This document shows, piece after piece, positions 1 to 3,405 of a stretch of 3,405 bases of DNA (position 1 is its first letter; every line of letters begins with the position of its first letter). Both the position numbers and the translations under genes were made by a program. The stretch is from Enterobacteria phage M. The stretch lies in sequence record JX625144; one strand, 5' to 3'. The notes under the pieces were generated by a model that saw only the letters and a list, made by a program, of their open reading frames with translations, was not told the origin of the DNA and made no database searches.

Positions 1-89
1 GAGGTGGGACGACCTCTCGGTCGTCCTATCTACACATAATGTGTAGGTCCCGTTAGGGCCTATGCTCCCTCACAATGGAGGTTCCATAG
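1..89 (+). other. 5' untranslated leader with two stem-loops: an 8-bp stem 7-14/19-26 (GGACGACC/GGUCGUCC, loop UCUC) and a 7-bp stem 30-36/40-46 (CUACACA/UGUGUAG, loop UAA)
   Basis: Perfect inverted repeats read directly from the sequence. The G-rich 5' end followed immediately by a stable hairpin is the usual levivirus 5' terminus (template for minus-strand 3' end). GGAGG at 76-80 lies 9 nt upstream of the first ATG. Confidence 0.6.
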
Positions 90-1277
90 ATGTATATTGA
101 TGTTACTTCCCCTGTGTCTGAGACATGGTCCGGTACGTGTACCGTCCATCGCCCTGCGGATAAAGGGGGACCTTACCAGAAGACTATCTCTGGGAAAGTG
201 ACGACTTTATCCTCATCGCGAGCTACTTCCTCGGGAAAGAAGGGAACTGTGGTTATTGCCGGTGAGACGATACCTTGGGCATACCCAAGGCCGTACTCAC
301 GTTGCATTACCCAGCGAACCCCCCTCGGAGGTAGTTTCGAGCTAGTTGTTGACGGTTATCCGGCGACTCTCTTTGGTCGTATACCATCGGAGACGATGGT
401 TACGCCTGGAGGTTCGTCTGTTACCATAAAGAGAATTCCTAATGTAACGGACTTCTCTGGTTTACCAACTATCTCAAGAAACGAACGATCGCGTAACTAT
501 GCGTCGTTCGCCGACTCGTTTAATGACGGGTCGGAACTCGCGAATGCTGCCCTTGAGTTTGGTGACAATATCGCTCTCCTCGCTAATTTAGCGACGAGCG
601 TTATGTACTTCTACCGCGGGGTACGACACGGGTCTATTTCTGATCTTAATCGTGCCTTCGGCGGAGGAAAGATTCGTAGTGTCTCTAAAAATGCGTCTTC
701 ACGCTACTTAGAGTATATCTACGGTATCCAACCCACTCTCGATGACATTCATTCGACCTTTGAGGTACTAAAGAATACTCCTCTGTCGAATCTCATTGCT
801 AGGCGAAAACGCATGTTTACGCTTGACCGTGAGTTCTCCGACGGTGGATTCCGCTTTAGTGGTAAGTTACATCACCAAGTTGGGTGTCATTATTGGTTTG
901 ACTCGCCTGAGCTTCATAATATGAGCTCATTGGGTCTTATCAATCCTGCACTCATTGCTTGGAATGCTGTACCTTACAGCTTCGTACTGGATTGGGTCCT
1001 ACCGATTGGTAGTCTCCTAAATTCGCTCACCGCATATGCGGGTGCGAACTTCATTTCCGGGTGGGATACTCTCTACCTGGAAGGAACCTGTACGTGTGCT
1101 CCTCGTTATTCGTCACTATCGGCCTCCTGGCCGACAGCGTCCTCTCTTATCACGATAAAAGCGATGCGTCGACAGGCCCTTGCTGGGTTTCCCCGGCCGT
1201 TGCCTTTCGTCAAAAATCCTTTATCGACCACTCACCTTGTAAACTTTGCCGCCATGTGGCGTCAGCGTTACAAATAA
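90..1277 (+). CDS. mat: Maturation (A / attachment) protein, 395 aa
   Basis: First long ORF at the 5' end of a levivirus-organised genome. ATG at 90 is preceded by GGAGG (76-80) with a 9-nt spacer; stop TAA at 1275-1277. Size (395 aa) is typical for levivirus maturation proteins. Assignment rests on gene order and size; I cannot verify homology by eye. Confidence 0.85.
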   Translation: MYIDVTSPVSETWSGTCTVHRPADKGGPYQKTISGKVTTLSSSRATSSGKKGTVVIAGETIPWAYPRPYSRCITQRTPLGGSFELVVDGYPATLFGRIPSETMVTPGGSSVTIKRIPNVTDFSGLPTISRNERSRNYASFADSFNDGSELANAALEFGDNIALLANLATSVMYFYRGVRHGSISDLNRAFGGGKIRSVSKNASSRYLEYIYGIQPTLDDIHSTFEVLKNTPLSNLIARRKRMFTLDREFSDGGFRFSGKLHHQVGCHYWFDSPELHNMSSLGLINPALIAWNAVPYSFVLDWVLPIGSLLNSLTAYAGANFISGWDTLYLEGTCTCAPRYSSLSASWPTASSLITIKAMRRQALAGFPRPLPFVKNPLSTTHLVNFAAMWRQRYK

Positions 1278-1304: not shown

Positions 1305-1706
1305 ATGCCTCAGCTCCAACCGCTGGTCCTCAAAGACCGTGCAGCTACACCAAAAGATCGTACCTTCTCTCCTTTCAATATTGAAGGAGGCGTTGGCTAC
1401 CTTGTTGAACGTACAGGGATTCCTGCGGGCGATAACACGTTTTCCATCTCCAGCCGTAAAACCGCTGGCGGAAAATACCGTGCTACCATCAAATTGATGA
1501 TGCCCGTGGTAACGACCAACCAATCGGTCAATGGAGTTACGGTTGTAACTTCTGAACGAGTGGCGGTTGCTACTTTGGAATTCCAGTTTGACGCTCGCTC
1601 TACTGAGCAAGAGCGTAAAGACCTGGTTAGCCTGATTCAGAGTTCTCTGGACCCGGCTAAATCTTTAGTCAATGACGCTGTTGTCAAACTGGAAGGCGTA
1701 TACTAA
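1305..1706 (+). CDS. cp: Coat (capsid) protein, 133 aa
   Basis: ATG at 1305 with AAGG (1293-1296) 8 nt upstream; stop TAA at 1704-1706. The ORF track begins this frame at an in-frame TTG (1284), but the ATG with SD is the more plausible start. Length of 133 aa and central position are typical of levivirus coats. The sequence (MPQLQPLVLKDR...FQFDARSTEQERKDL...VVKLEGVY) resembles PRR1/Qβ-type coat proteins as I recall them, including the C-terminal Y. Confidence 0.92.
   Translation: MPQLQPLVLKDRAATPKDRTFSPFNIEGGVGYLVERTGIPAGDNTFSISSRKTAGGKYRATIKLMMPVVTTNQSVNGVTVVTSERVAVATLEFQFDARSTEQERKDLVSLIQSSLDPAKSLVNDAVVKLEGVY

Positions 1707-1741: not shown

Positions 1742-1745
<4 letters not shown>
1728..1745 (+). 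promoter_or_regulatory. Putative translational operator hairpin spanning the replicase start codon (coat-protein binding site)
   Basis: ACAU(1728-1731) pairs with AUGU(1742-1745), A1732 is unpaired (bulge), GG(1733-1734) pairs with CC(1740-1741), loop AAUAA (1735-1739). The replicase AUG (1742-1744) sits in the 3' arm. The architecture mirrors the MS2 operator (ACAUGAGGAUUACCCAUGU: lower stem, bulged A, GG/CC, A-rich loop). Confidence 0.6.
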
Positions 1746-3304
<1,559 letters not shown>

Positions 3305-3405
3305 CACCAAACTCGCCCGCAAGGGTGCCCCTAACGGGGGGGGTCTCATCACTCCTGATGAGATTTTGTTGTTACGGTAGATTGCTATGCTACCGTAACA
3401 CCCCA
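3305..3405 (+). other. 3' untranslated region with stem-loops: a 5-bp stem with GCAA (GNRA) tetraloop at 3314-3327, an 8-bp stem 3344-3351/3356-3363 (loop CUCC), and a terminal 10-bp stem 3371-3380/3390-3399 (9-nt loop), followed by ACCCCA-3'
   Basis: Inverted repeats read directly: GUUACGGUAG/CUACCGUAAC, UCUCAUCA/UGAUGAGA, and CGCCC/GGGUG with one G-U pair. A 3' terminal hairpin followed by unpaired ...CCCA is the conserved levivirus 3' end recognised by the replicase. A G8 run at 3336-3343 also lies in this region. Confidence 0.7.

Follow-up and report, generated by a model that had tools for sequence, protein, structure and literature searches.

Phage M probably carries a compact four-hairpin 5' untranslated region headed by the canonical levivirus terminal hairpin

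Results and discussion

The phage M genome and the elements of its 5' end

Phage M is an RNA phage specific for IncM pili, and its 3405-nt genome (JX625144) was described by Rumnieks and Tars in 2012 (BMC Microbiol 12:277; PMC3561173). The stretch analyzed here, which we call the window, comprises the 3,405 nt of that record, numbered from the first nucleotide and read on the plus strand. A published primer, CTGGCGCCTTTGGTGGATAC, which PMC3561173 places at 'nucleotides 3072-3091', matches the window at 3072-3091, and IMG/VR contains an identical 3405-nt sequence. In a phage BLAST collection lacking the phage M record, a megablast search with the entire window returned no match, and the nearest replicases are those of PRR1 and PRRlime, at 48% identity. 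The gene order (maturation, coat, replicase) and the 3' end CACCCCA are those of a levivirus (Fiersviridae), the group in which a 5'-terminal hairpin is expected. The elements discussed below are collected in Table 1.

Table 1. Elements of the phage M leader, the three genes and the 3'-UTR hairpin complementary to hairpin 3
Feature	Position	Strand	Description
5'-terminal GAGGUG	1-6	+	in minimum free energy folds, nt 2-6 pair with 27-31 and extend the base of hairpin 1 by a stem that includes G.U pairs
Hairpin 1 core, GGACGACC/UCUC/GGUCGUCC	7-26	+	8 bp; -14.0 kcal/mol when folded alone
Contested segment UAUCU	27-31	+	partner of 2-6 in hairpin 1; alternatively, nt 28-31 join 45-48 in hairpin 2
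Hairpin 2, CUACACA/UAA/UGUGUAG	30-46	+	7 bp; can grow to 9 bp, then spanning 28-48
Hairpin 3, CCC GUUA GGG (CCCGUUAGGG)	49-58	+	extendable to 45-61
Hairpin 4	60-89	+	CUAUG (60-64)/CAUAG (85-89) and CCUC (68-71)/GAGG (78-81), from folds
Maturation gene	90-1277	+	ORF; protein identical to AFU61979.1; its start closes the 89-nt 5' UTR
Coat gene	1305-1706	+	ORF
Replicase gene	1742-3304	+	ORF; translation identical, residue for residue, to AFU61981.1 (Enterobacteria phage M)
3'-UTR hairpin, CCCC UAAC GGGG (CCCCUAACGGGG)	3328-3339	+	inner 10 nt (3329-3338) match the reverse complement of hairpin 3 exactly

The first 46 nt read GAGGUG GGACGACC UCUC GGUCGUCC UAU CUACACA UAA UGUGUAG. An initial annotation had drawn two perfect hairpins back to back in this stretch, 7-14/19-26 (8 bp, loop UCUC) and 30-36/40-46 (7 bp, loop UAA), and both are present as drawn, with every pair Watson-Crick and the loops as given. 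Searching the whole window with Rfam covariance models gave no match at E <= 1, and the levivirus leader is itself absent from Rfam (PMC4615214). A blastn search with nt 1-130 returned chance matches only.

Hairpin 1 is the terminal hairpin of the family

The 5' end of phage M is far more structured than its composition predicts. The minimum free energy of nt 1-46 is -25.7 kcal/mol, compared with -10.8 +/- 2.7 kcal/mol for shuffled sequence (z = -5.56; 0 of 200 dinucleotide shuffles as stable), and the fold of nt 1-130 is similarly exceptional (z = -4.65). Whatever the length of sequence folded, from 46 nt up to 800-nt windows, the core pairs of hairpin 1 have a probability of at least 0.99. 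Minimum free energy folds carry the stem beyond this core to 13 bp (2-14/19-31) by adding G6.U27, U5-A28, G4.U29, G3-C30 and A2-U31, which leaves G1 as the sole unpaired 5' nucleotide; folded alone, nt 2-31 reach -21.6 kcal/mol. We also considered whether ACCUC (12-16) could serve as an anti-Shine-Dalgarno element, and ruled this out because the segment is locked in the stem at a pair probability of 1.0.

For comparison, we folded the 5' ends of MS2, GA, Hgal1, C-1, PRR1, PP7, AP205 and Qbeta. A terminal hairpin of 10-14 bp beginning at nt 1-3 is present in eight of the nine isolates, M included, with a loop of 4 nt in seven of them and of 3 nt in Qbeta. In the seven isolates other than M that have it, this hairpin folds at about -16 to -22 kcal/mol; the 5' fold of GA is ambiguous, with a helix of ~12 bp from nt 1 set against another from nt 10 (-11.5 kcal/mol). 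Hairpin 1 of M, at 13 bp with a UCUC loop and -22.0 kcal/mol, is a stable GC-rich stem with a small loop and falls within the family range. It is also not new, as PMC3561173 already draws the terminal hairpin of M ('Phage M is no exception (Figure 3A)') and links it to replication. The view of the window as a levivirus genome in the initial annotation is supported, and its first stem is the hairpin that canonically opens such genomes.

The closest resemblance is to MS2. Its 5' hairpin (nt 1-28), GGGUGGGACCCC UUUC GGGGUCCUGCUC, looks homologous to GAGGUGGGACGACC UCUC GGUCGUCCUAUCU of M: both have 12-13 bp, of which two to three in the lower stem are G.U, a tetraloop of pyrimidines and a free energy near -22 kcal/mol. 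Set out by segment, the termini read G-A-GGUGGGAC-GACC-UCUC-GGUC-GUCCU in M and G-GGUGGGAC-CCC-UUUC-GGG-GUCCU in MS2.

The second nucleotide of the genome is anomalous

Phage M starts with GA, whereas all eight other isolates start with GG. The initial annotation had contrasted the M terminus with a typical GGG and doubted the first one or two nucleotides. Its premise holds only in part, as many leviviruses begin with GG alone (PRR1, Hgal1, GA, PP7, AP205). The doubt itself is reasonable but can be narrowed to nt 2, where an A is odd; M and MS2 can be aligned at their termini, which argues against lost upstream nucleotides. According to PMC3561173, the 5' end of M was read from dA-tailed first-strand cDNA clones, an experiment akin to the RACE that the initial annotation had suggested.

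Three comparisons single out the same position: the other isolates, the octamer shared with MS2, and the 3' end of M itself, where the complement of CACCCC(A) predicts a GGGGUG start. A G at nt 2 would give four 5' Gs mirroring the four 3' Cs, as the three and three of MS2 do. A2 could be a real variant, or it could be a reverse-transcription or cloning error at that nucleotide. Among the related contigs described below, none reaches nt 1-9 to provide an independent check. Either base can pair with U31, so the hairpin is unaffected.

A second, abutting hairpin is an ordinary arrangement

The back-to-back layout highlighted by the initial annotation recurs when related 5' ends are compared, with an adjoining second hairpin in four of the eight other isolates (PRR1, C-1, PP7 and AP205), and is therefore ordinary. 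Like M, these four phages have a GC-rich terminal hairpin followed by one or two more with almost no spacer. They lack sequence similarity to M in hairpins 2 and 3, and CCCGUUAGGG is absent from all four. PRR1 and C-1, together with Hgal1, are the isolates grouped with M in PMC3561173. Hairpin 1 is a published, family-wide 5' element and hairpin 2 an ordinary neighbor of it. The accessible portions of PMC3561173 name the terminal hairpin only; hairpin 2, the competition for nt 27-31 and the comparison with metagenomic relatives do not appear in them.

Hairpins 1 and 2 are predicted to compete for nt 27-31

Hairpin 2 is AU-rich and weak when folded alone (-6.1 to -8.5 kcal/mol), and it cannot coexist at full length with the extended form of its neighbor. 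The 13-bp hairpin 1 claims C30 and U31, so that hairpin 2 is cut to 5 bp (32-36/40-44). In the alternative state, hairpin 2 has 9 bp, with A28-U48 and U29.G47 added, and hairpin 1 has 8-9 bp. Over nt 1-62, the exact pairing drawn initially has an energy of -26.4 kcal/mol, compared with -29 to -34.3 kcal/mol for alternative folds, and both stem cores are common to all of these alternatives. The state with hairpin 1 extended and that with hairpin 2 extended lie within about 1-5 kcal/mol of each other, and the pair probabilities vary with context.

This dependence on context is strongest for chain length. Predicted occupancy of hairpin 2 is 0.99 at 46 nt, 0.09 at 95 nt and 0.9 at 130 nt, and its central pairs (33-36) have probabilities of 0.83-0.99 in every context save the 95-nt construct. 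In that construct, a rival helix between 41-47 and 59-65 (GUGUAGG with CCUAUGC) is predicted to outcompete hairpin 2, taking its 3' arm and extending hairpin 3.

Metagenomic relatives preserve the hairpins and vary their sequence

Protein searches and contig look-ups provided three groups of relatives. Eight M-like contigs encode proteins that share clusters of at least 90% identity with those of phage M. More distant are the group of Beihai levi-like virus 25 (contigs L024, L161 and L033), with a replicase ~51% identical to that of M, and, as two further lineages, the Logan contigs L159 and L160; replicase identity to M is ~48-52% across these more distant contigs. Pattern scans of IMG/VR and JGI metagenomes, using a motif of hairpin 3 with the Shine-Dalgarno sequence and GGTTCCCGTTAGGG, produced almost only chance matches to DNA phages, L033 being the useful one. 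Among 23 levivirus contigs of greater distance whose 5' ends we also folded, most are clearly truncated and uninformative.

Seven of the eight M-like contigs span the 5' region, starting at M positions 10, 11, 14, 25, 28, 48 and 52; the eighth, L023, begins inside the maturation gene. Contig ends should be read with care. The first 24 nt of L029 (Logan SRR24706582_38456) are Illumina adapter (...AGACGTGTGCTCTTCCGATCT), with phage sequence from M position 25, a warning against equating contig ends with genome ends. In the Beihai-25 group, L161 has an additional C ahead of the GGG that opens L024.

Four aligned M-like contigs differ from M in the 5' UTR at three positions (A36G, A39G and U40C), all at the apex of hairpin 2. 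A36G keeps its pair as G.U, A39G lies in the loop and U40C opens the closing pair; the lower six pairs are unchanged. In addition, L156 has a G for A at M position 12, 2 nt from the end of the contig.

In the more distant lineages, hairpin 1, a single U, hairpin 2 and hairpin 3 follow one another as they do in M. L024 reads G GGAACCUC UCUC GAGGUUCC U GCCGC UUUC GCGGU U CCCGUUAGGG, and L159 reads ...CUC GAGGUUCC U AGCUAGCG CUUG CGCUAGUU CCCGUUAGGG. Between M and the Beihai-25-like lineage, four of the eight core pairs of hairpin 1 show compensatory changes, none is broken and the UCUC loop is identical, within a comparison of few lineages. The slot of hairpin 2 is filled by a stem of 7-9 bp with a UAA loop in M, 5 bp with UUUC in L024, L161 and L033, and 8 bp with CUUG in L159. 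Hairpin 3 behaves differently: four lineages with replicase identities of only ~48-52% have exactly the same CCCGUUAGGG, while hairpins 1 and 2 change around it. It lies at 38-47 in L024, 33-42 in both L033 and L159, and 10-19 in L160; among the 5' ends of PRR1, C-1, Hgal1, MS2, GA, PP7 and AP205, it was not found.

In an N-padded structural alignment of these sequences (A3), pairing extends to 99.2% of cells, and both sides are altered in 12 of 20 pairs; none of 500 shuffles reaches the observed values, and slid alignments are 22-43% paired. The alignment covers three independent lineages only, and its construction by hand, with the hairpins as the guide, biases it toward structure, for hairpin 2 especially. 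With that bias in mind, the pattern of substitution indicates that selection maintains both hairpins 1 and 2.

These comparisons also bear on whether hairpin 2 has a function at all. The window contains 10 distinct perfect hairpins of at least 7 bp, compared with 1.3 expected from shuffles, and 2 of the 10 lie within the first 46 nt. In a genome so highly folded, a hairpin that reaches a mere -6.1 kcal/mol alone could be incidental and have no specific function. We regard this as scarcely credible, given that three sequence-unrelated lineages all fill the slot between hairpin 1 and the invariant hairpin 3, and that the changes in the M-like contigs spare the lower six pairs.

Hairpin 2 might instead be a packaging signal close to the 5' terminus, where the coat or maturation protein would make contact. 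Levivirus genomes contain many dispersed stem-loops that contact the coat protein, and hairpin 2 is small, exposed and conserved in position. This role nonetheless appears highly improbable. According to PMC3561173, operator binding critically depends on a purine left unpaired within the stem and on a loop A situated four nt ahead of the start codon. Hairpin 2 lacks these features, being a perfect 7-bp stem with a UAA triloop and no bulged purine. The loops UAA, UUUC and CUUG also differ among the relatives, which argues against sequence-specific recognition by a protein.

The leader of phage M differs from that of MS2

Downstream of hairpin 3, hairpin 4 contains the Shine-Dalgarno sequence of the maturation gene, GGAGG (77-81), which is paired in every fold. 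A rival of hairpin 4, pairing 77-82 with 105-110, is favored in longer constructs. L024 has a hairpin analogous to hairpin 4, with a lower stem of AUCG/CGAU instead.

Hairpin 2 could chiefly control translation of the maturation gene rather than replication. In MS2, a metastable hairpin shares 4 nt with the 5' hairpin on its 3' side, frees the 5' Gs and postpones the pairing that inhibits the Shine-Dalgarno sequence (PMC4615214). By analogy, hairpin 2 of M would form first on the nascent strand and then compete with the base of hairpin 1 (27-31) and the base of hairpin 3 (45-48), and the timetable of folding would set how long the Shine-Dalgarno sequence stays open. In the predicted folds, its topological relation to hairpin 1 matches that of the MS2 metastable hairpin, with nt 28-31 common to hairpin 2 and the extension of hairpin 1. 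The small energy gap between the competing states, the swings in hairpin 2 occupancy with chain length and the constant pairing of the Shine-Dalgarno sequence would all suit such a switch.

Other features argue against this account. The MS2 leader is 129 nt long and has a single-stranded upstream complementary sequence after the hairpin, a three-arm cloverleaf and long-distance pairing of the Shine-Dalgarno sequence (PMC4615214). In contrast, the M leader, at 89 nt, folds into four consecutive hairpins with neither an MS2-type cloverleaf nor long-distance pairing that would enclose one. No complement of the Shine-Dalgarno sequence, in hairpin 2 or elsewhere, was found in M 27-48; its partners are local (68-71 or 105-110). 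In addition, the rival helix 41-47/59-65 has a counterpart in L024 (GCGGU/AUCGC) and none in L159. The translational role is a prediction from in silico folds, and we judge it unlikely.

A proposed role in replication

The preferred reading, to which we assign a probability of roughly 80%, is that hairpin 1 is the canonical terminal hairpin and that, with the abutting, weaker hairpin 2 and hairpins 3 and 4, it makes up a compact four-hairpin 5' UTR that acts in replication by the mechanism proposed below. That the 5' element of leviviruses is needed for replication, as the initial annotation had supposed, has support from MS2. There, plus strands are made only if the minus strand carries, at its 3' end, the complement of the 5' UTR, whereas that of the other UTR can be dispensed with (PMC6847885). 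In the same cell-free system, a minimal 43-nt complement of the terminal hairpin works poorly, and maximal activity is obtained with the full 124 nt (PMC6847885). The difference between the 43-nt and 124-nt templates would agree with a contribution of hairpins 2 and 3 beside that of hairpin 1. By analogy with MS2 and Qbeta, we infer that hairpin 1 serves replication in phage M. A replication role would also be our inference for hairpin 2, which could equally act in folding, in control of maturation-gene translation or as a structural spacer.

In the mechanism we propose, hairpin 1 would close once about 30 nt of the plus strand have been made and would hinder annealing of product to template; that the hairpin helps to keep the strands single was proposed by Beekwilder et al. 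(1996), as cited in PMC3561173. Once closed, hairpin 1 would bury the 5' end apart from G1. The minus strand ends, on its 3' side, in the complements of hairpins 1-3, and these would be the region that the replicase needs in order to start plus strands. There, the G.U pairs of the lower stem would become C.A mismatches, leaving an 8-bp copy of hairpin 1 and a 3' end CCACCUC whose last 6 nt would be free for initiation. Hairpin 2 would be a structural member of this 5' domain, in which its shape and position would count and its sequence would not.

Free folds of the complementary strand are in line with such an asymmetry. In the complement of M, only the 8-bp core of hairpin 1 folds, and hairpin 2, being all Watson-Crick, forms fully. 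The terminal hairpin has -22.0 kcal/mol in the plus strand versus -15.9 kcal/mol in the minus strand of M, with 6 free 3' nt, and -21.5 versus -15.5 kcal/mol in MS2, with 5 free nt. The hairpins of PRR1 and PP7 are nearly symmetric between the two strands, so plus/minus asymmetry is no general rule. The anomalous second nucleotide also counts against the proposed mechanism, as a 5' GA implies a minus-strand 3' end of ...CUC(A), unlike the CC(A) of other leviviruses.

Beyond correct annotation, these results carry little weight, since hairpin 1 is published for M and universal in ssRNA phages. What they add is the conserved position of hairpin 2, the invariance of hairpin 3, the G.U-based asymmetry between plus and minus strands and the oddity at nt 2. 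These additions may be of use in building a phage M replicon and in a covariance model of Fiersviridae 5' leaders.

Complementarity between the ends and other long-range pairs

The complementarity between hairpin 3 (49-58) and the 3'-UTR hairpin (3329-3338) can be read in two ways: as a loop-loop contact between the 5' and 3' ends, or as the same hairpin presented near the 3' ends of both strands. CCCCUAACGGGG is invariant in the M-like contigs; L024 has CCCUC GAAA GAGGG in its place, which is not complementary to hairpin 3. Perfect inverted pairs of 10 nt number 6 in the whole genome, against about 5.5 expected by our own estimate (N^2/2 x 4^-10). With the pair count near chance and the homologous 3' hairpin of L024 non-complementary, we regard the 49-58/3329-3338 match as of doubtful significance.

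A more elaborate, dynamic leader would combine several of these elements: hairpin 2 and the base of hairpin 1 would form in alternation, hiding and exposing the 5' nucleotides as the MS2 metastable hairpin does, and hairpin 3 would contact CCCCUAACGGGG. If true, that contact would join the genome ends for the replicase. We consider this combination quite improbable.

Two further observations concern regions outside the leader. A segment early in the maturation gene (117-129, UCUGAGACAUGGU) is 92% complementary over 13 nt to 1739-1751 (ACCAUGUCUCGGA), which spans the replicase start and operator; judged by complementarity, this pairing might provide long-distance control of the replicase start. 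In the 3' UTR, close relatives differ from M by compensatory changes in a hairpin at 3344-3363 (UCUCAUCA CUCC UGAUGAGA), next to the invariant CCCCUAACGGGG: its arms read CUCACUA...UAGUGAG in L027 and CCCACUA...UAGUGGG in L023.
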